From: Thermoplasmata archaeon
GTDB taxonomy: Archaea; Thermoplasmatota; Thermoplasmata; GCA-020350865
DNA length: 64,000 nt
Direction: 5' to 3'
NCBI GenBank assembly: GCA_020348445.1
Contig: CP070751.1
Coordinates: 615,901 to 679,900, forward strand
Made by a program: the position numbers and the translations under genes. Shown here in pieces: positions 4,291 through 54,108 of this stretch. The notes below the pieces were generated by a model, which was not told where the DNA came from, did not search any database, and saw nothing but the letters and a program-made list of their open reading frames with translations. Numbering within the stretch: the stretch's first letter is position 1; every line of letters starts with the position of its first letter.

Positions 4291-7200
4291 CTGATTGATC
4301 CTCAGGTGGCAGTGTTTGTGGTCCCTCTTCAGATATAATTTGGTCTCCTTCAAAATCCTCAGGTATTGTCTGTGTTTCCTCATCAGACACAATCTGATCT
4401 TCTTCAAGATTCTCAGGCGGTGAAGTTGGTGGTCCCTCTTCGGTTACAGGCTCAACCTCTTCCGGTATCACAGGCTCCTTCTTCCAGGGTTTAAGTAAAA
4501 ACATTACCACGACAATAATTATTATGATAACAATAATCAAGATCAGCCACATGTAATTCTCCTCCTCCCCCTCATCTTCCTCCTCCTCTGCAATTTTTAT
4601 CATAATCAAAGAGTCTGTGGTAAGAGTATTATGCTGCCCTGCGGTTACAGGCAAACCTATAATAGTCTTGTCTTGATAACCAGTCTTCTCCGCCTTAAGA
4701 TCATAGGTTCCCGCAGGTATGTTTGATATCGTGAAATCTCCATTTTCGTCAGTTGTAGCAGAATAAGTTATCCCAACCAATGTCACCGTCGCACCCGAGA
4801 TTGGTTCGCCATCCTCATCTTTTACTGTCCCAGATATTGAACCAGTTGTCACAGCTGAGCTGACATTCACCCACATTGTGTCTGAATCTTTGTTCCCTGC
4901 TTCATCTGTGACGTTTAAAGTAACTAAATAATCACCCGGGGCAATGAATCTGTATGTTGAATTCACACCTTCAAGTGTTATCAGATCTCCATCTGTAAAA
5001 GTCCATGTGTATTTTAAATGCTGGAAATTATCAGTTGTGCCGCTTCCATCAAAAGTCACGGTTGTCTCTGGCGGAACTTGTTGATCAAATCCTGCATTTG
5101 CACGTGGTGGAGTTACATCGTAACCGCAAATTGCCTTAGCAGTTGTGGCTGTTTCTTCGTTAGTGGCCTTATCGATTGCGATGGTGTAGAGCTCATAGTA
5201 AGCCTCAGCGTGCGGAAAGTCGAAGATCCACTCCCAGGGAGTCTGTGTATCCACTCCAAAGGTGACATCGGTACTCCAAGTCAAGTTATTATTGCTGTAT
5301 CTGTAGAACAATTCCACACTTACCATTTTACTGTCCAGCTCCTTAACGGCAGCACTTATTATAATTGGTGATGTGGTCTGCCAGTAAGGAATGATTCTGC
5401 TAATCTCTGAATAGGGTATCTGTGTATCATATCCGCATATTGCATCTGTTCCTGTATCTGTTTCAACATTACCTGCGGAATCTGTAGCAATTGATTTGAG
5501 TTCATAATATCTTTCACTCTCGGGGAAATCGAATATCCATTCCCAAGGGCTTGTAGTATCTGTTCCAGCTGTCTCCCATTCACTCCAGGATTGGTTTACA
5601 GGACTGTATCGATACAACAACTCAACACTTTCTACACTGCTTCCTATGTCTGAAGCGGTGGCGGAAATAGTAACTTGCCCAGTATTGTTCCAGTATGGTG
5701 AGATCAGATCAACACTTGAAGCGGGTAATGTGGTATCTATTATTATTGTTGCAAAGGCATCTGATGTGAGGTTGAAATTATAATTCTCATCCCTGGCATA
5801 GACATAGATATCGTAGCTACCATCTCCCCATCCCGCGGTGCTAATAGAAATATTGACAGATTCGGTTGGTGTATCAAGTGCACCATCAGAGGGATCCAAA
5901 TCGGTCCCTGGCCAGTTCTGAGAACCGATAGTATAATTCGCACCAGTAATATTCGCGCCACCGGTTGAGGAATCATCGATGGTTGCGGTCAGTGTAACAG
6001 TTGTCCCCTCTATTACAGTAACAGAAGGCAATCCATCTACAAGTACATTGGTAATCTCTGGTGGTCTTATATCCACGGGATTCACAAGTGGATAACAATC
6101 CTCTGCCCCTGCCGGGCCATTTATGAAATAAGAAACATCAACAATTCCATAAGGTGGATTATCATCTGGTGTCGTCCAATCTGCCCACCAATTGCCTTTG
6201 GTTTCATAATACCAATAGTTATAGTCACCGTCATCGTATGCCTGAACATTCAAGGGGTTATAAACATCCGTGCTTCCCCTATTATAGGCTATGTTGTTAT
6301 GATAGATATTGTTGTAGTAAGAGGATGTAATAAAAACAGCGTAATCGTGGCAATTAAAGATATCGTTTAAGATGATGCTGTTGTTGTTAGAATTGTCGAA
6401 GATATAGATGCCGCGTGCATCAGTGCCGATGGCTTTAATGGTGTTGCCTGTTAGATTGTTATAATTCGAATATGACGTTATCCTAATGCCGTATCCGGAC
6501 GAATTAGTAGTAAATATTGTGTTGCTTGTTAGATTGTTACTCGAAGATGAAGATATCCCAATGCCACGACCATACTCCCCAGAAGTGTTTATTGTGTTAC
6601 CTGTTAGATTGTTGTTATTCGAATAATCAGATAAATCAATACCGTACCCATACTGCCCAGATGTATTTATTGTGTTGTCTGATAGAATGTTTTTCGTAGA
6701 TGAAGATAGATAAATGCCGTCTCCATTCTGCCCAGATGTATTTATTGTGTTGCCTGTTAGAGTGTTATTCGAAGAATAAGATAGCCTAATACCAAAACCA
6801 TACAGCCGAGATGTATTTATTGTGTTGGCTATTAGATTGTTATTATTTGAAGAGAGTTTTATACTAATGCCGTGCCCATACTCCTCAGCAGTATCTATAA
6901 TATTTTCTGTCAAAGTATTATTCGAAGATGTAACAAGATAAATGCCGGACCCAGCATATCCAGAGGTATTTATTGTATTGCTTTTTAGAATATTGTTATT
7001 CGAAGAGTCATTTAGGTAAAAGCCATACCCATCCTGTCCAGATGTATTTATAATGTTTCCTATTATAGTATTATCATTCGAATAAGGAAATAAATAAATG
7101 CCGTAACTGTCTTCTCCAGAGGTATTGATAAAGTTGTTTTTTATATTATTGTCATTTGAGGAATAATACAGATAAATGCCAATTGCCGATTGGTTTTGAG

Positions 7201-8095
7201 TAGTTATGAGGTTCCCTGATAGACTATTATTTACAGAGTCATATAGATAAATACCATGCCCGGACTGATTATAAGTACTTATCGTATTACCTATTAGATT
7301 GTTATCATTCGATATTGATCCAATTTCAATGCCATGCCCATTCAAACCTGAGGTATTTATCTTATTTTCTGTTAGATTGTTATTACAAGATTCATCTAGA
7401 AAAATACCACTTGCTTGTTGACCAAAAGCATCTATTTTATTGTCTGTAACATTATTATTAAATGAGACAGACATCCAAATACCATACCCCCACTGCCCGA
7501 AGGTCTTTATCGTATTGCCTGTTACCATATTATTATTCGTGAAGGCGTATAAACGAATACTAAATCCGTATAGATTGTTAGTAATTATTGTGTTGCCAGT
7601 TATACAGTTGTTTGAGGATTGAACTGCAATCCCATAGCTACTATCTCCTGTAGTGGTAATATAATTGCTAGTAATGGTAGAATTATGCGCTGAGCTACTT
7701 TTAAGATTTATTCCATACGTAAAATTTCCAGAAACGGAAATATTGAACCCAGTGATGTTCACACCGCTTGCCGTAACATTAATCCCGGCTGATTTAATGC
7801 TCCATGTTCCTTCATAATGATATATAATCTTACAGTCTGAACTACTATTGCCAATGAGAGAGATATCTGGTGTGCTTATATTTACAGATTCAACATATGT
7901 TCCATTCGCCACGATGATAGTATCCCCAGGGATTGCGGCATCCACTGCACTCTGTATAGTATCATAAATCAATCCAGGACCCACATACAGAGTGTTACCG
8001 CCACTCACATTCTCAGTCTCAAATGTGACAAATCCCAAAAATCCCGAGATGACCAACATACACACTATTCCCATCGAGATTAACCTGTTTTTCAT
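4280..8095 (-). CDS. Giant cell-surface beta-helix adhesin/S-layer-like protein, paralog B (1271 aa)
   Basis: N-terminal signal/anchor MKNRLISMGIVCMLVISGFLG. About 20 tandem 22-23-aa PbH1 coils (consensus SNNNLTGNTINTSGxYGYGIYL). Ig-like modules, including two ~105-aa repeats (SPWEWIFDFP...YYEL). PKD domain (ANAGFDQQV...YTWTF...YLVTLNVTDEAGN). CarboxypepD_reg-like domain (GTVKDEDGEPISGATVTL...). C-terminal TM helix and an acidic cytoplasmic tail. Confidence 0.9.
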   Translation of the reverse strand: MKNRLISMGIVCMLVISGFLGFVTFETENVSGGNTLYVGPGLIYDTIQSAVDAAIPGDTIIVANGTYVESVNISTPDISLIGNSSSDCKIIYHYEGTWSIKSAGINVTASGVNITGFNISVSGNFTYGINLKSSSAHNSTITSNYITTTGDSSYGIAVQSSNNCITGNTIITNNLYGFSIRLYAFTNNNMVTGNTIKTFGQWGYGIWMSVSFNNNVTDNKIDAFGQQASGIFLDESCNNNLTENKINTSGLNGHGIEIGSISNDNNLIGNTISTYNQSGHGIYLYDSVNNSLSGNLITTQNQSAIGIYLYYSSNDNNIKNNFINTSGEDSYGIYLFPYSNDNTIIGNIINTSGQDGYGFYLNDSSNNNILKSNTINTSGYAGSGIYLVTSSNNTLTENIIDTAEEYGHGISIKLSSNNNNLIANTINTSRLYGFGIRLSYSSNNTLTGNTINTSGQNGDGIYLSSSTKNILSDNTINTSGQYGYGIDLSDYSNNNNLTGNTINTSGEYGRGIGISSSSSNNLTSNTIFTTNSSGYGIRITSYSNYNNLTGNTIKAIGTDARGIYIFDNSNNNSIILNDIFNCHDYAVFITSSYYNNIYHNNIAYNRGSTDVYNPLNVQAYDDGDYNYWYYETKGNWWADWTTPDDNPPYGIVDVSYFINGPAGAEDCYPLVNPVDIRPPEITNVLVDGLPSVTVIEGTTVTLTATIDDSSTGGANITGANYTIGSQNWPGTDLDPSDGALDTPTESVNISISTAGWGDGSYDIYVYARDENYNFNLTSDAFATIIIDTTLPASSVDLISPYWNNTGQVTISATASDIGSSVESVELLYRYSPVNQSWSEWETAGTDTTSPWEWIFDFPESERYYELKSIATDSAGNVETDTGTDAICGYDTQIPYSEISRIIPYWQTTSPIIISAAVKELDSKMVSVELFYRYSNNNLTWSTDVTFGVDTQTPWEWIFDFPHAEAYYELYTIAIDKATNEETATTAKAICGYDVTPPRANAGFDQQVPPETTVTFDGSGTTDNFQHLKYTWTFTDGDLITLEGVNSTYRFIAPGDYLVTLNVTDEAGNKDSDTMWVNVSSAVTTGSISGTVKDEDGEPISGATVTLVGITYSATTDENGDFTISNIPAGTYDLKAEKTGYQDKTIIGLPVTAGQHNTLTTDSLIMIKIAEEEEDEGEEENYMWLILIIVIIIIIVVVMFLLKPWKKEPVIPEEVEPVTEEGPPTSPPENLEEDQIVSDEETQTIPEDFEGDQIISEEGPQTLPPEDQSEEL

Positions 8096-28658: not shown

Positions 28659-28732
28659 GGGCCTATAGCTTAGACTGGTGGAGCGCCCGGCTGATAACCG
28701 GGAGGTCGAGAGTTCAAATCTCTCTAGGCCCA
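28659..28732 (+). tRNA. tRNA-Ile (anticodon GAU), no intron, CCA not encoded
   Basis: GGGCCTA TA GCTT AGACTGGTGG AGCG C CCGGC TGATAAC CGGGA GGTC GAGAG TTCAAAT CTCTC TAGGCCC A gives a clean cloverleaf. Confidence 0.95.
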
Positions 28733-28757
28733 CTTACCTTTTATATTAAATTGATTC

Positions 28758-28823
28758 GTGGGCCTATTGATGTTCGAGTTATGCTAGAGATCGCTAAGTC
28801 TTAAGCTCGAACATCTCTAGGCC
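28758..28823. repeat. Foldback element A1 (tRNA-acceptor-mimic hairpin)
   Basis: GTGGGCCTA TT GATGTTCGAG [27-nt loop TTATGCTAGAGATCGCTAAGTCTTAAG] CTCGAACATC TC TAGGCC. The 10-bp inner stem is perfect, and the outer 6 bp equal the tRNA-Ile acceptor stem. Confidence 0.85.
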
Positions 28824-28888
28824 ATAAATTAAGGATGGTGTTCTGAGCATCTCTAGGCCTCTGGTTATCAATTCAATCAAATTAATAC

Positions 28889-28956
28889 GTGGGCCTATTG
28901 ACGCTCAGGTTATGCTAGAGGTTGCTATTTCTTAAACCTGAGCATCTCTAGGCCCA
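28889..28956. repeat. Foldback element A2
   Basis: GTGGGCCTA TT GACGCTCAGG [TTATGCTAGAGGTTGCTATTTCTTAAA] CCTGAGCATC TC TAGGCCCA. Three inner-stem base pairs differ from A1 on both arms in a compensated way. Confidence 0.85.
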
Positions 28957-29293
28957 CAAGAATTAAGAATGGTGTGCTGAGCATCTCTAGGCCCCCAAGA
29001 ATTAAGAATGGCGTGCTGAGCATCTCTAGGCCCTTGGTTATCTAAAGACATGAATAAGCCCCCTCCGAAAAATATATAAAGGGGGAGCAGATATATAATA
29101 GGGACAGCCGAAAAAGCATAACAACACTACTTTCAGAGAGGCAGTGTGAGATAGCCTGCCAAACTGTTTAGGGGCGGAGCTACAAGGATTATCGAATATC
29201 TATTCGAGTTGTTAAATCACTGCTCTCATGTTGAGTACATAGGGTTTCTGATTTAAATCAGAAAGCGAATTCGTGCTAAAAGGAGGTTAAAAT

Positions 29294-29482
29294 ATGTCAA
29301 TATTAGCTCCAGCAAAGATGAGGCTATGGATTGAACTGTGGAAGGAGGAAGTGATGGCCTCGATTCCAAAAGAAGAATTACAGCAAAAATTTCAAGGTAA
29401 GCAGATTAAAAAAGGACGAATGCCCACTAAGCCACCCGAGAAGATCCAAGCTAAACTCGAGGGAGGAGGCCAAGTTTTGTAG
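29294..29482 (+). CDS. Small Lys-rich hypothetical protein (62 aa)
   Basis: Strong SD AAAGGAGGT 7 nt upstream of the ATG. No recognisable domain. Lies upstream of the KamA-family gene. Confidence 0.45.
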   Translation: MSILAPAKMRLWIELWKEEVMASIPKEELQQKFQGKQIKKGRMPTKPPEKIQAKLEGGGQVL

Positions 29483-50576: not shown

Positions 50577-51743
50577 ATGGCAAAAAGACGAAGCACAATC
50601 GGAAAAAAAGGCAAGCATGGGAGAGAAGGTGTGGATATATCTCTTGCCGAGACAATGAAAAGACGGAAAAGGAAGATATTAAGCGTGGTATTGGTGATCG
50701 TGATAGTGGTGGCGATTTTAGCGTCAGTTTATTACTTCTTCTTTTTAAGCAAGGAATCTGACGATGATGTTGATGTTCTAACCTCATCATCCAAACACTT
50801 GCAAGGTTATCCTAATGATACCATAAGCTATACTTACACGATTCACAATCCCAGTAGTAAATCTGACGTTTTTTCCCCTATGCTATTTGGTCTACCCTCC
50901 GATTGGACAATTATCATGCCAAACACCATTTCTGTGAAGGGAAAAGAATCCAAACAGGAACAATTCTCTGTAATACCAAAACTCGAAACAGCCGTGAATA
51001 ATACATATCCATTTAAGCTCAATGTCACATCAGCCAATACCCAAAAGACTTCTTCCGTCGACTTCGAAATAACTGTATATAGATTAAATTACGGTGTTGA
51101 GCTTGTATGCTACAATACCACTCATGATGCAGACCCTGGGAGAAATGTCCTCTACGGGATATTGGTTCGGAACACAGGTAATGGAGAGGATTCTTTCTCC
51201 TTCTCCTACAAACACCTTCCACCAAATTGGACCATTTCATTTGAATTTGATCAAATAGTGATTCCTGGTTATGGCTCCAAGTCGGTGATTGTCAACATCT
51301 CCACCCACATCAATACCTCTAAAGGTCGATACGATATGGATATCATGACCACATCCAGCGGTGGCCCCACAGCCTCAATCTGGTTGAACACTTCAACTGT
51401 TAAAGATTTCGATGCTAGAACCATAAAGGAAGGGGACAGAATACAGGTGAATTATATCGGTTATTTCCCAGATGGCGTGGTCTTTGACACATCGTATGCT
51501 TATGTGGCCAATAACACCAATTGGTCAAAAACTCCAGGTTTTACTCGTACTGAATTTTCTCCATTGAAGGTAGCTACAACCACTAGAGAAGGCGATTACA
51601 CAACTGTTGTTATTGGATTCAAGGAAGGGCTTATGGGATTGAAAGTTGGCGAATCAAATGTGGTCCGAGTTCCTCCTGAAAAAGCCTATGGTGATGGTCT
51701 ATGGCGCATTTTTGAAATCGACATAGTCAGCATAGACAACTGA
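50577..51743 (+). CDS. Membrane-anchored protein: NEW3/CARDB-like domains + C-terminal FKBP-type peptidyl-prolyl isomerase
   Basis: Trimmed to the ATG at 50577. Basic N-terminus, TM helix VVLVIVIVVAILASVYYFFFL. YTIHNPSSKSD / ILVRNTGNGEDSF motifs. FKBP motifs GDRIQVNYIGYFPDGVVFDTS...GFKEGLMGLKVGES..V.VPPEKAYG. Confidence 0.75.
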   Translation: MAKRRSTIGKKGKHGREGVDISLAETMKRRKRKILSVVLVIVIVVAILASVYYFFFLSKESDDDVDVLTSSSKHLQGYPNDTISYTYTIHNPSSKSDVFSPMLFGLPSDWTIIMPNTISVKGKESKQEQFSVIPKLETAVNNTYPFKLNVTSANTQKTSSVDFEITVYRLNYGVELVCYNTTHDADPGRNVLYGILVRNTGNGEDSFSFSYKHLPPNWTISFEFDQIVIPGYGSKSVIVNISTHINTSKGRYDMDIMTTSSGGPTASIWLNTSTVKDFDARTIKEGDRIQVNYIGYFPDGVVFDTSYAYVANNTNWSKTPGFTRTEFSPLKVATTTREGDYTTVVIGFKEGLMGLKVGESNVVRVPPEKAYGDGLWRIFEIDIVSIDN

Positions 51744-51973
51744 CATCTCGATTTGTGAGGAATAATGTAAATTCCACTGAGAGCCGGGTTAGGAAAAAAC
51801 AGTTGATAAGGCTGTTGGGCTCTCAGTGGTATAGGGCGTTGAGGTAAGGGATTCGGAAAAACGGCTTTTGTTAATAAATGTTTTGTGCTGTAGTTATCAG
51901 ATTTGATACTGTTCACAACTAATTTATCTAATACGATTTACAATAATCATATCAGAACCTTTCTTTAGAAAGC

Positions 51974-52213
51974 ATGGTTTCTAATCTGGAGTATGATGAC
52001 ATGGATACCACAGCATTACTCGGTATGTTCTCGATAACTGCAGGTCTGGTTTTCTTCTTCACAAGCGGTGCATTCTCGATAATCAGCTCTTCCCTGGGAA
52101 TGTTATTCCAGGGAATTGGGATAGCTCTGATTTACCTGGGGATCGCATTTATTTTATGGAATGTCCTGAGCTCGCTGAACATCTTTTTAGAAAGGTTCGT
52201 GAAAAGAAGTTGA
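51974..52213 (+). CDS. Small 2-TM membrane protein (hypothetical)
   Basis: 79 aa with two hydrophobic helices and no clear SD. Confidence 0.35.
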   Translation: MVSNLEYDDMDTTALLGMFSITAGLVFFFTSGAFSIISSSLGMLFQGIGIALIYLGIAFILWNVLSSLNIFLERFVKRS

Positions 52214-52249
52214 GTGGAGGGCACCCCGTCCAGATTTATTTTGATCTAT

Positions 52250-52316
52250 CGTCTTAGTGTTCGAGTTATAATTTTTCATCAATTGTTTCTTAAGCTCGAA
52301 CACTAGACGGGAGCAC
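52250..52316. repeat. Foldback element G1, same family as 28758..28823, adjacent to tRNA-Glu
   Basis: CGTCTTAGTGTTCGAG [TTATAATTTTTCATCAATTGTTTCTTAAG] CTCGAACACTAGACGGGAGCAC. The core TGTTCGAG-TTAT...CTTAAG-CTCGAACA is shared with A1. The terminal GACGGGAGCAC is identical to the 3' end of tRNA-Glu, in inverted orientation. Confidence 0.8.
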
Positions 52317-52340
52317 GAATCAAATAAAAAATAATATAAG

Positions 52341-52489
52341 TGCTCCCGTCGGGATTTCCGAGCCGTGGGAGGAAATGGAGTGGTGAGTCCCTCACCACGG
52401 GCATTCGAACCCGAGTCGTCGGCTGTCCTTGGCAATTTTAGGAAAGCCTCGAAAGGCCGAAATGATTGGCCGGTCTACACTACGGGAGC
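52341..52489 (-). tRNA. tRNA-Glu (anticodon UUC) with two inferred introns (canonical 37/38 and T-loop)
   Basis: Revcomp reads GCTCCCG TA GTGT AGACCGGCCAA TCAT T TCGGC CTTTCG [25 nt: AGGCTTTCCTAAAATTGCCAAGGAC] A GCCGA CGAC TCGGG TTCGAAT-[49-nt insert within a 56-nt loop region] CCCGA CGGGAGC A. The exon parts match the canonical archaeal tRNA-Glu layout. Confidence 0.8.
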
Positions 52490-52815
52490 ATGTTTGTGGA
52501 TGTCGCATATTACTTCAGATCAAACATGCGACTAAGTGGCGGCTATGCCGCCACGGTAGGACACATTTGCGAATGCCGCGCATCTGAACTAAGCAAATGT
52601 GCGATTAAGTGGTGCGAGCATTGCGAGCACCACGAAAGGTGCAAAATGCGCCAGCATTTTGCATTATTTGCGAATGGATTTATACCCAAGTGCTCCGAAG
52701 GAACACGATTTCATCCAAGGATGGATTTCGGGTGAGTATGATATAATGTATATTTTAATATTGCCTTCAAGGACGATCATCCCTGGTCAGGAAAAGAATG
52801 CTGCCCTGAGCAGAT

Positions 52816-54108
52816 TCAACTCTTCTTTTTTATTTTGACCGTTATCATGCGTACAACTACGAGCAGCAGGATAAATAACCATATTCCCCAGATAACCATT
52901 CTACCCCAGTAGGGCAATTCGGTTTTCGGCCTACTGCTTGCAGGTTGCGAATCGAGGATGAGCGTTATGGGCTTTTTATCACTTATATCAACGGTTGTAT
53001 AGTTGCTCATAAATCCCTTAGCTGTTCTGAATATAAAAGGAGTATAGATTATCTCAGTATTGCTGCTGTCGATTTCATATTCCCTGAGTCTTACGACTCG
53101 AAAATTATTTAATGTCTCATTACTCCAAACCATTTTTCCATGTTGATCCCAGATCGTCAGATTCACGCCATCCACAGGATCATTTTTTGAGTTGTATATC
53201 TGGATGAAAATCTCCCATTCCAAAAGGACATTTCCAGCCCCATTTCTCCTCCCGTCTTTCTCGAATATATTGTCGTTGTGATCTGCCCGGATGTCAAGGG
53301 AATAGATTCCCCATTTCGAGTTGCCGTATATTTGGTTGTTGGTTGCATTGATTTTTGCTCCGTGCCCCCATATCCCAAATCCATCATTCGAGGCAATTGT
53401 ATTGTTGCGAACATCCATGTATACCCATTCTCCTATGATACCGCTTGAGGTATTGTTAGATATTTCGTTTCCTATTAATGTGACATAACCACCCCAGAGG
53501 CAGGACACGCCGATTTCATTCTTGGTTATCGTGTTATTGTATAGCAACGGTGATCCAGAGAAGCTTACAACACCACCATAATTGGAATGAATTGTATTGT
53601 TAAAGATAACGGCTGTCCCATAACATATAATACCATACTCGGTGCTATCAAACACGGTGCTGTTTGCGATGTAGACATCACCAAAGTAAGTGAAGATTCC
53701 TCCTGCGATACGGCTAATTGTGGAGCGCTCCATGGTCATATTTCCCCATACTGCAAAGTAATATGCATGGCGGTTTGCAGTGATGTTGGAGTCATAGATG
53801 TTCAGTCTCGATCCTCCATCCACCTCAATTCCTGTGATCCCACCCCTAGAGGAGTTCATAATAAGAACAACATTGTCCAAAGTTAGGGTGGCATTTTCTA
53901 CTACAGTCAAATTGCCGTTTATTATGATGATTTCGTCGGATACATATGTATCGTTTGCGATAATCCAATCACCTTGGATTGGGGCAGGATAATCTCCTGT
54001 ACCGTCGGCTATGCTGTTTGATAAGAAAGAACTGAGTGTGTTAAAAAGGCATATGAAAATGATAATTGGATATACAGATTGTTTTAATGTACTGGCCCTG
54101 CGATTCAT
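52816..54108 (-). CDS. Secreted right-handed beta-helix (PbH1/NosD-like) protein with C-terminal TM anchor
   Basis: The start could be 54108 (MNRRASTLKQSVYPIIIFICLF, a signal-like sequence) or the track's 54165. Repeated coils ..N.I..N..GI.. follow, then C-terminal helix WGIWLFILLLVVV plus KIKKKS. Confidence 0.7.
   Translation of the reverse strand: MNRRASTLKQSVYPIIIFICLFNTLSSFLSNSIADGTGDYPAPIQGDWIIANDTYVSDEIIIINGNLTVVENATLTLDNVVLIMNSSRGGITGIEVDGGSRLNIYDSNITANRHAYYFAVWGNMTMERSTISRIAGGIFTYFGDVYIANSTVFDSTEYGIICYGTAVIFNNTIHSNYGGVVSFSGSPLLYNNTITKNEIGVSCLWGGYVTLIGNEISNNTSSGIIGEWVYMDVRNNTIASNDGFGIWGHGAKINATNNQIYGNSKWGIYSLDIRADHNDNIFEKDGRRNGAGNVLLEWEIFIQIYNSKNDPVDGVNLTIWDQHGKMVWSNETLNNFRVVRLREYEIDSSNTEIIYTPFIFRTAKGFMSNYTTVDISDKKPITLILDSQPASSRPKTELPYWGRMVIWGIWLFILLLVVVRMITVKIKKKS

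Follow-up and report, generated by a model that had tools for sequence, protein, structure and literature searches.

A 64,000-nucleotide (64-kb) stretch of the genome of a Thermoplasmata archaeon (contig CP070751.1, positions 615,901 to 679,900), referred to here as the window, contains a tRNA-Ile(GAU) gene that is followed by an array of short foldbacks ending in copies of the 3' end of that tRNA. These foldbacks belong to a lineage-specific family of ~90-nt palindromic modules located at tRNA gene 3' ends in a Thermoplasmata clade. The family is non-random and conserved, matches nothing in the libraries searched, and is tied to at least two tRNAs. Both tRNAs of the window carry the module, which argues for a family rather than a local accident. 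The layout of a module, including the end of the tRNA gene, is core>, spacer, core<, inner hairpin, core>.

Modules at the tRNA-Ile and tRNA-Glu genes

The array 3' of tRNA-Ile (Table 1) includes two foldbacks of 64-66 nt and three partial units of 36-39 nt. An earlier note, made from the sequence alone, had described these features, and they are borne out by sequence and by folding z-scores, with most details correct. The outer stem of foldback 1 (GGCCTA/TAGGCC) leads into a 10-bp inner stem (GATGTTCGAG/CTCGAACATC) around a 27-nt loop. The inner stem of foldback 2 (GACGCTCAGG/CCTGAGCATC) differs from that of foldback 1 by three compensated changes and one uncompensated change, a C.A, exactly as the note had it, and its outer stem reaches 9 bp when the flanking GT...AC is counted. 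Foldback 1 has a covariance-model score of 81.8 bits. RNA folding yields -30.8 kcal/mol for foldback 1 (z -5.3 versus shuffled sequences) and -37.3 kcal/mol for foldback 2 (z -8.0), and DNA folding yields z-scores of -5.4 and -6.4, respectively. The partial units alone do not fold in RNA folding.

Table 1. Coordinates of the modules, their tRNA genes and a neighbouring element in the window
Feature	Position	Strand	Evidence or detail
tRNA-Ile(GAU) gene, intronless in the window	28659-28733	+	ARAGORN; Rfam tRNA, 70.7 bits
Spacer 1, 26 nt, AT-rich, T-run/TATA-like TTTTATAT, 3' end TTCGT	28734-28759	+	Sequence
Foldback 1, stem type a, TGTTCGAG/CTCGAACA, loop TTATG...GTCTTAAG	28760-28823	+	
Partial unit U1, AAATTAAGGATGGTGTT, then 3'-arm copy CTGAGCATCTCTAGGCC	28824-28859	+	Direct-repeat family
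Spacer 2 (TCTGGTTATCAATTCAATCAAATTAATACGT), diverged copy of spacer 1	28860-28890	+	Repeat search
Foldback 2, stem type b (CGCTCAGG/CCTGAGCA)	28891-28955	+	Covariance model, 84 bits
Partial units U2 and U3, tandem 38-39-nt copies ending CTGAGCATCTCTAGGCCC	28957-28994, 28995-29033	+	Repeat search, motif count
84-nt element, closing stem GCAGTG/CACTGC invariant, internal TCGAAT..ATTCGA palindrome	29141-29224	+	Conserved in 8 loci
Foldback at tRNA-Glu	52250-52315	+	Covariance model, exact-stem search, DNA fold z -5.0
Spacer between tRNA-Glu and foldback, 25 nt, CTTATATTATTTTTTATTTGATTCG in tRNA direction	52316-52340	-	Sequence
tRNA-Glu(UUC), two introns	52341-52489	-	Exons 52489-52450, 52424-52403, 52353-52341

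The core copied by the modules at tRNA-Ile consists of the last 13 nt of the gene (CTCTCTAGGCCCA) and the next base, C. The final GT of spacer 1 is the complement of the AC (discriminator plus first trailer base) of the tRNA-Ile gene. A repeat search detects a 90-nt direct repeat (28734-28823 and 28865-28954, 78% identity), tandem repeats with periods of 39 and 131, and foldback arms of 18-23 nt that are 87-89% complementary and amount to terminal inverted repeats. The 15-mer GARCATCTCTAGGCC, the tRNA-end motif counted five times in the earlier note, indeed has five copies on the + strand, found only at the tRNA-Ile locus, against 0.11 expected. The 2-nt deletion invoked there to align this motif with the tRNA 3' end is unneeded, as the 3' arm aligns without gaps (16/20).

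A covariance model built from the Ile foldbacks of relatives finds one extra match in the window, at 52249-52311 (E about 1e-5), and no further foldback copies within the 64 kb with filters off. This foldback lies at a tRNA-Glu gene. It has a type-a stem and the loop ends of foldback 1 (TGTTCGAG TTAT...TTCTTAAG CTCGAACA), and its 3' end, CTAGACGGGAGCA, is the 3' end of tRNA-Glu and not that of tRNA-Ile. The covariance score is 29.6 bits on the + strand and 10.7 bits on the - strand, so that the foldback stands tail-to-tail with its tRNA, inverted with respect to the orthologous copies in L016 and L019 (L-numbers denote contigs or loci of relatives). The latter are in direct orientation, with 3' arms CCCGACGGGAGCA (13/13) and CCCGACGGGAGC, respectively. 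The Glu spacer and Ile spacer 1 have TTGATTCGTG in common, and an inverted repeat at the Glu spacer (GACGGGAGCAC/GTGCTCCCGTC) forms an 11-bp hairpin with a 23-nt loop (z -6.8, DNA folding). The third exon of tRNA-Glu is exactly the 13-nt core, CCCGACGGGAGCA, that the Glu foldbacks copy.

Target copying, stem covariation and array turnover

The 3' arm of each module is a direct copy of the last 12-13 nt of the neighbouring tRNA gene plus the first trailer base. The 5' arm repeats this stretch in inverted orientation, so that the discriminator and first trailer base are represented there by their complements. In the folded form, the outer stem GTGGGCCTA..TAGGCCCAC matches the two strands at the tRNA gene end, with a bubble of 2x2, and Glu copies are alike. 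The acceptor-stem mimicry described in the earlier note stands insofar as the tRNA end is copied, but it is better termed duplex mimicry of the 3' end of the gene, encompassing the T-stem 3' strand, the acceptor 3' strand, the discriminator, and one trailer base. Ile and Glu foldbacks have a common inner stem and common loop ends (for example, ..GCTATCGTCTTAAG in both L016-Glu and L006/L009-Ile) and switch to the sequence of their own tRNA exactly at T-stem position 61/62, where the T-stem 3' strand begins. The tRNA-specific ends are CCCGACGGGAGCA for Glu, matching 13/13 in L016, and TCTCTAGGCCCA for Ile.

The arms co-vary with the neighbouring tRNA gene at two further positions. A T-stem of CTCCC (L001, L007, and L014) goes with a foldback reading ..CCCTAGG, and CTCTC elsewhere goes with ..CTCTAGG; this C/T difference reappears in the 3' arm, at a base that has no pairing partner in the foldback. 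Similarly, genes reading ...A C have GT as the dinucleotide before the foldback, and genes reading ...A T have AT. Loci with T as the first trailer base are L006 and L009 (Ile) and L019 (Glu), giving two independent co-changes with the dinucleotide. In manual alignment, the loop next to the 3' arm resembles tRNA-Ile (GTCTTAAG versus GGTCGAGAG) and not tRNA-Glu, suggesting an origin in the 3' part of tRNA-Ile and a later spread to tRNA-Glu.

Compensated changes maintain the hairpin. Two foldbacks had led the earlier note to this view, and it holds with much better support at 19 copies. In 12 full foldbacks, 87.6% of cells are paired and 5 pairs are changed on both sides; in 19 inner hairpins, 89.9% of cells are paired and 7/12 pairs are changed on both sides (29 cells). 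The covariation score of the 19 copies was reached by 0/500 shuffles, and slid controls all scored far lower. The inner hairpin consists of 8-10 bp around a ~27-nt loop, with nearly invariant loop ends, TTAT and TCTTAA(G). There are four recurrent stem types: a (TGTTCGAG/CTCGAACA), b (CGCTCAGG/CCTGAGCA), c (TGCTCGAG/CTCGAGCA), and d (TGTTTGCG/CGCAAACA). Stem mismatches include 10 G.T and 9 A.C, and a U.G occupies the loop-closing position in 12/19 copies.

The foldback loop also reads as a 7-codon open reading frame (ORF; ATG CTA GAG ATC GCT AAG TCT TAA, MLEIAKS; 28782-28805 in the window). This frame (MLE[DIV]A[MKI]S, with CTA, CTT, or TTG as the Leu codon) is intact in about 12 of 16 Ile copies, is interrupted in L007 and L001, and is absent from all Glu copies. 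This reading was rejected; the frame probably arises because the loop ends are fixed and the loop is 27 nt long.

Further copies, for which the earlier note had called, exist not only at the second tRNA of the window but also at the orthologous loci of relatives. All 11 tRNA-Ile loci (organisms or contigs) and all 3 tRNA-Glu loci recovered from the Thermoplasmata clade carry 1-3 foldbacks beginning 25-27 nt past the tRNA, the spacer being 25-27 nt long at every locus, and none of the 14 is an empty site. Each tRNA found by Rfam in loci of this clade has a foldback 3' of it. A metagenome scan with the tRNA-Ile 3' half alone, a pattern that is hence unbiased toward the foldback, returned 7 contigs, 5 of which have a foldback 26-27 nt 3' of the tRNA (L006, L007 = L008, L009, and L010); no foldback is present at L011, a tRNA-Ile from a different lineage, or at L005, an unrelated tRNA cluster. 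Loci with PmbA homologues that reach the tRNA have foldbacks in 6/6 cases (L001, L002, L012, L014, L015, and L020). L013 ends before the tRNA and L018 before the Glu foldback. A metagenome scan with the PmbA protein gave no match, and a contig scan for the loop plus TAGGCC, an Ile-specific pattern, gave CP070739.1 and one chance match only. A weak covariance-model match at L016:9025-9090 (13.9 bits) was dismissed on inspection.

Conservation is concentrated in the module. Mean pairwise identity among ten Ile loci is 0.76 in the foldback, 0.69 in the spacer, and 0.50 in the next 66 nt, compared with 0.49 in a shuffled control. The arrays themselves vary. The window has foldback a, a unit, foldback b, and two more units at tRNA-Ile; L012 has a decayed foldback c and then foldback b; and L020 has foldbacks b, c, and a with three near-identical spacers, such that core and spacer junctions are near-identical and the inner hairpins are of three types. 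Type b, the stem of foldback 2, thus recurs in both L012 and L020. L014 has foldback c, debris, a copied tRNA 3' fragment with spacer, and another foldback c. L001 has one foldback with an extra inserted hairpin plus one unit, and L015 has one foldback plus decayed units; the unit 3' of the L001 foldback is U1-like, and decayed versions of it occur in L015 and L014. Remaining Ile loci have a single foldback each. The order of stem types is not conserved, which argues for gain, loss, and rearrangement over static inheritance.

Several other features of these loci were observed. In L001 (CP070739.1), a tRNA-Ile promoter-like box lies beside PmbA with the tRNA 2 kb further on (region 5366-7404), and a hypothetical gene and an FRG-domain gene lie between box and tRNA. 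The additional hairpin in the L001 foldback (7536-7578) is 10 bp long and is inserted in the 5' arm. The downstream flank of the L001 array is partly hidden by a run of ~100 N (7687-7785), 11 nt past the partial unit, and a similar run is found in L002 (6249-6347). An anticodon-loop intron of ~21 nt in tRNA-Ile(GAU) is present in L001, L002, L007/L008, and L014 and absent from the window, L009, L012, L015, and L020; its presence or absence does not track foldback stem types.

DNA-level and RNA-level readings

A tentative explanation, and the one preferred here, is that the modules are small non-autonomous palindromic DNA elements that copy their tRNA-end target and turn over by recombination at the 13-nt core. 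Such a module would be a miniature non-autonomous element that acts and evolves chiefly as DNA. Its first source was probably the 3' part of tRNA-Ile, and it may have spread to at least one more tRNA by exchange at the T-loop/T-stem junction. Gain, loss, tandem multiplication, and inversion would result from recombination between 13-nt cores, catalyzed by a putative enzyme acting in trans, such as a tRNA-targeting integrase or a Xer-like recombinase. We infer DNA-level recombination as the mechanism, and it has precedents: partial tRNA copies are known as remnants of archaeal mobile elements, and integrases are known to invert segments flanked by attachment (att) sites (PMC9897764, PMC5495485, PMC3293823). 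Of the three candidate explanations put forward in the earlier note (integration scars, a palindromic element that copies its target, and a co-transcribed minihelix), the palindromic target-copying element fits best. A DNA-level reading is favoured over an RNA-level one, the two not being mutually exclusive, because of mismatch parity, trailer-base copying, neighbour specificity, the inverted copy, and the position of the TATA box.

Several observations weigh against this proposal. Occupancy of 100% at both tRNAs in every relative seen would be uncommon for a selfish element and agrees with a host function. The att repeats of archaeal integrases are ~44 bp (PMC9897764), far longer than the 12-14-nt core. 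No recombinase, transposase, integrase, or Rep was found among ~45 window ORFs searched against Pfam or in the gene tables of the loci. No virus or plasmid with the hairpin or the hairpin-core junction was found in IMG/VR (patterns for the loop, the tRNA-Ile 3' half, two stem variants, and two hairpin-core junctions) or by BLAST against phages and plasmids. Lastly, the T-run/TATA-like box in every spacer and the T5-T7 after most foldbacks or arrays fit small transcription units.

Comparison with known repeats points to both likenesses and differences. The modules resemble the att repeats of SSV-type and pNOB8/pTN3-type integrases in that an intact tRNA is followed downstream by a direct repeat of its 3' end, and they resemble archaeal integrative elements in tandem accretion and inversion between sites (PMC9897764, PMC5495485). 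They differ in that the repeat is 12-14 nt rather than ~44 bp, the "element" between repeats is ~80 nt and gene-less, an inverted core and a covarying hairpin are present, and no integrase was found nearby. Short, imperfect intergenic palindromes with maintained structure are also typical of repetitive extragenic palindromes and bacterial interspersed mosaic elements (REP/BIME) and of palindromes like miniature inverted-repeat transposable elements (MITE-like; REP-RAYT, Correia, RPE), and REP/BIME form clusters of alternating orientation, as do the modules. These families have tens to hundreds of dispersed copies, no tRNA specificity, and no flank copying, whereas every module copy seen is tRNA-adjacent and carries that tRNA's own end. 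The modules have MITE-like terminal inverted repeats, and their copy number is 3 in 64 kb, all tRNA-adjacent, the whole-genome scan having used an Ile-specific pattern. The window ORFs scanned include no RAYT-like or Y1 transposase domain. The 5' arm contains a pC194-type nick motif (CTTGATA), which was discarded because it is not conserved. A CRISPR array, with its identical repeats and unique spacers, was rejected: the repeats here have diverged and are irregular (periods 39 and 131), and what lies between them is repeated too. The literature searched contains no account of elements of this kind.

The modules could instead be, or could at the same time be, structured RNAs with a host function, which is the main alternative, possible though rather unlikely. 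Two versions can be envisioned: in the first, the foldback would be co-transcribed with the tRNA and freed by RNase P and tRNase Z as a tRNA-like minihelix; in the second, it would be transcribed from the TATA-like box of the spacer and end at the following T-run. The product would be either a stable small RNA or an element that serves processing or termination within the tRNA transcription unit. Strong covariation and conserved loop ends are expected of a functional hairpin, the U.G at the loop-closing position speaks for RNA, orthologous loci are fully occupied, and conservation is far above that of neighbouring DNA. Most loci have only T4 between tRNA and foldback and the longer T-runs after the foldback or array, and the TTTTATA-like sequence of every spacer lies at a fixed distance from the foldback. 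There are parallels in other systems as well. The tRNA-like "t-elements" of Haloferax, located upstream of 5S rRNA, are processing signals, mascRNA-type minihelices are likewise tRNA-like processing elements, and E. coli tRNA 3' external transcribed spacers are functional RNAs. The modules share with tRNA-like processing elements an acceptor-like stem and a discriminator that could be cut by RNase P and tRNase Z; unlike them, the foldback has no remnant of a T-arm or cloverleaf and obtains no score with tRNA models, and it copies neighbouring DNA including the trailer base.

The closest purely descriptive parallel is in E. coli, where 178-bp tandem repeats at the 3' end of the tyrT operon (rtT RNA) each contain the last ~19 nt of the tRNA. 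These repeats likewise lie right 3' of a tRNA gene, are transcribed with the tRNA, and are thought to stem from unequal crossing-over. They have no sequence relation to the modules (no Rfam match), lack an inverted-copy foldback, and are known from a single tRNA locus.

Several properties of the modules are difficult to reconcile with an RNA-level function. The arms copy one base past the discriminator and track both an unpaired position and the trailer base, none of which is required for RNA mimicry. Processing enzymes would accept any acceptor-like stem, which does not account for arms specific to the neighbouring tRNA. G.U is not in excess of A.C (10 versus 9). The Glu copy of the window is inverted relative to its tRNA and spacer, yet it is still a perfect hairpin. 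Given standard archaeal promoter geometry, a TATA-like box ~13 nt from the foldback would place the start ~10 nt inside it. The spacer of L014 does align significantly with the tRNA-Ile promoter (0/500 shuffles), but this similarity is significant only in L014 and not in the window (458/500 shuffles). Three of these points, trailer-base mimicry, parity of G.T and A.C, and the one inverted copy, bear directly on the co-transcribed minihelix of the earlier note, which is weakened accordingly.

Searches for known RNA classes were also negative. ARAGORN calls only tRNA-Ile at its locus, and the Rfam tRNA model matches only 28659-28732 even at E<=10, arguing against a tRNA or tRNA pseudogene; the foldback folds as a single extended hairpin with no cloverleaf. 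Rfam 15 contains no family matching at the gathering threshold, and at E<=10 gave only chance-level miRNA or snoRNA matches. A C/D-box guide RNA was rejected on reading the sequence, since the UUGAUGU of foldback 1 has no matching 3' CUGA, and an H/ACA guide RNA was rejected because, despite an ACA after some copies, the internal loop is only 2x2 and offers no pocket. A bulge-helix-bulge was rejected on sequence.

A doubtful but specific variant of the DNA-level proposal is that the modules are miniature archaeal elements that integrate via a folded hairpin att site imitating the duplex 3' end of the tRNA gene. The CTXphi attP(+) hairpin and integron attC are folded single-stranded att sites with unpaired stem bases whose stems imitate the duplex target. 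The foldback stem likewise reproduces a duplex target with unpaired bases, and the modules share with CTXphi attP and attC conservation of structure over sequence and tandem arrays at the target. A CTX-type event is predicted to leave core>, hairpin loop, core<, rest of the element, core>, and the modules are arranged in this way. In contrast, CTXphi and attC belong to bacteria, have dif or attI as their targets, and bring genes or cassettes with them, whereas here the target is an archaeal tRNA gene end and the unit is ~90 nt. The modules would then represent an archaeal, tRNA-targeting version of recombination at CTXphi attP or integron attC, with the inner hairpin perhaps as the sole "cargo", for example an origin or a recombinase-loading site. 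One single-strand exchange and subsequent replication would leave exactly core>, spacer, core<, hairpin, core>. Introns at the T-loop/T-stem junction may be inserted by this process as well; compare exon 3 of the window tRNA-Glu, which equals the core. No candidate for a cognate recombinase or replicon was found in the window or in viral, plasmid, and phage collections.

It is quite improbable that the arrays are passive scars, without maintained structure, left by ordinary integrase-bearing elements that integrated and excised repeatedly at the tRNA 3' end. The 12-14-nt core is directly repeated after ~80 nt, five times in the window, and tandem direct repeats of the tRNA 3' end, together with the displaced tRNA 3' fragment in L014, resemble the integration-derived partial tRNA copies that are common in Archaea (PMC9897764). 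To this extent the scar explanation of the earlier note has merit. However, the core is not the ~40-50 bp (~44 bp for archaeal att repeats) expected of such scars, no ORFs, integrase, or cargo lie between the repeats, and integrase or cargo is present at 0/14 loci. Moreover, scars do not explain the inverted copy of the core, and neutral debris would not hold seven covarying pairs or 0.76 identity beside randomised DNA. This reading is disfavoured.

Least probable of all is a functionless, decaying tandem tRNA duplicate produced by slippage or unequal crossing-over and kept symmetrical by arm-to-arm gene conversion: the foldback 3' half matches the tRNA-Ile 3' part at 16/20 to 19/26 positions (repeat search and manual alignment), the tandem periods of 39 and 131 fit, and tRNA-Ile itself scores weakly (15 bits) with the foldback model, but the same constant hairpin stands at tRNA-Glu, whose T-arm differs, so the copies were not each made from their own neighbour, and conservation persists where the flanking protein is only 63-75% identical.

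The tRNA-Glu gene, neighbouring features, and significance

The tRNA-Glu gene of the window has one intron in the anticodon loop (52449-52425) and one in the T-loop (52402-52354). When spliced manually, it forms a clean 75-nt cloverleaf that ARAGORN calls tRNA-Glu(ttc). Unspliced, it is detected neither by ARAGORN, intron options included, nor by Rfam at the gathering threshold; the one-intron orthologues in L016 and L019 are picked up by Rfam. Intron 2 is missing from both relatives. It ends in a degenerate copy of the T-stem/T-loop (GCTCGGAAAT), holds a perfect mini-palindrome (GTGGTGAG gga CTCACCAC), and appears to have been inserted at the very junction from which the foldbacks follow their tRNA. 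tRNA intron gain by integration has been described (PMC3293823).

On the other side of the gene (52490-52775, - strand), ~270 nt between a conserved promoter-like AATATTAAAATATA box and tRNA-Glu form a chain of hairpins (z -5.3) that includes two GTGG...CCAC mini-palindromes. In L019 the same box is only ~45 nt from tRNA-Glu, so the leader hairpin modules look inserted in the window and L016. The GTGG...CCAC mini-palindromes were rejected as a shared frame of the modules, being confined to the tRNA-Glu leader and intron.

The tRNA-Ile array is preceded by a TldD/PmbA gene pair and followed by a conserved 62-aa ORF (29294-29482, MSILAPAKMRLWIE...) and a KamA-like radical-SAM gene. PmbA has a 100% identical counterpart in a metagenome-assembled genome of a "Thermoplasmata archaeon". 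Its relatives at 63-75% identity include closed Thermoplasmata or Methanomassiliicoccales metagenome-assembled genomes, and the ~45 window ORFs scanned against Pfam are housekeeping genes. The 84-nt element of Table 1 lies directly upstream of the 62-aa ORF, with a promoter-like CCGAAAAATATATAAA ahead of it at about 29066-29081. It has no Rfam match and is a candidate leader or small RNA. The sequence at ~29189-29215 that the earlier note read as a decayed arm pair is part of this separate element and no foldback remnant. Nor is the region clearly the largest non-coding gap in the window, as claimed there: 51743-52816 is longer if its 79-aa ORF is not real.

tRNA gene ends are favourite landing sites of archaeal and bacterial mobile elements, and such sites are usually marked by a large element that has an integrase, together with a long att repeat. 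The footprint of the modules is ~90 nt and gene-less, with both target strands reproduced, a covarying hairpin, and clade-wide persistence or turnover at the same tRNAs. The module also brought to light a two-intron tRNA-Glu that both standard tRNA finders had overlooked and that was detected only in this way. If the modules are RNAs, they would constitute a new class of conserved small RNAs, each associated with an individual tRNA, in an uncultivated lineage whose genomes are unusually large. If they are recombination modules, they would represent an undescribed mode of tRNA-gene targeting in Archaea and possibly a route of tRNA intron gain.

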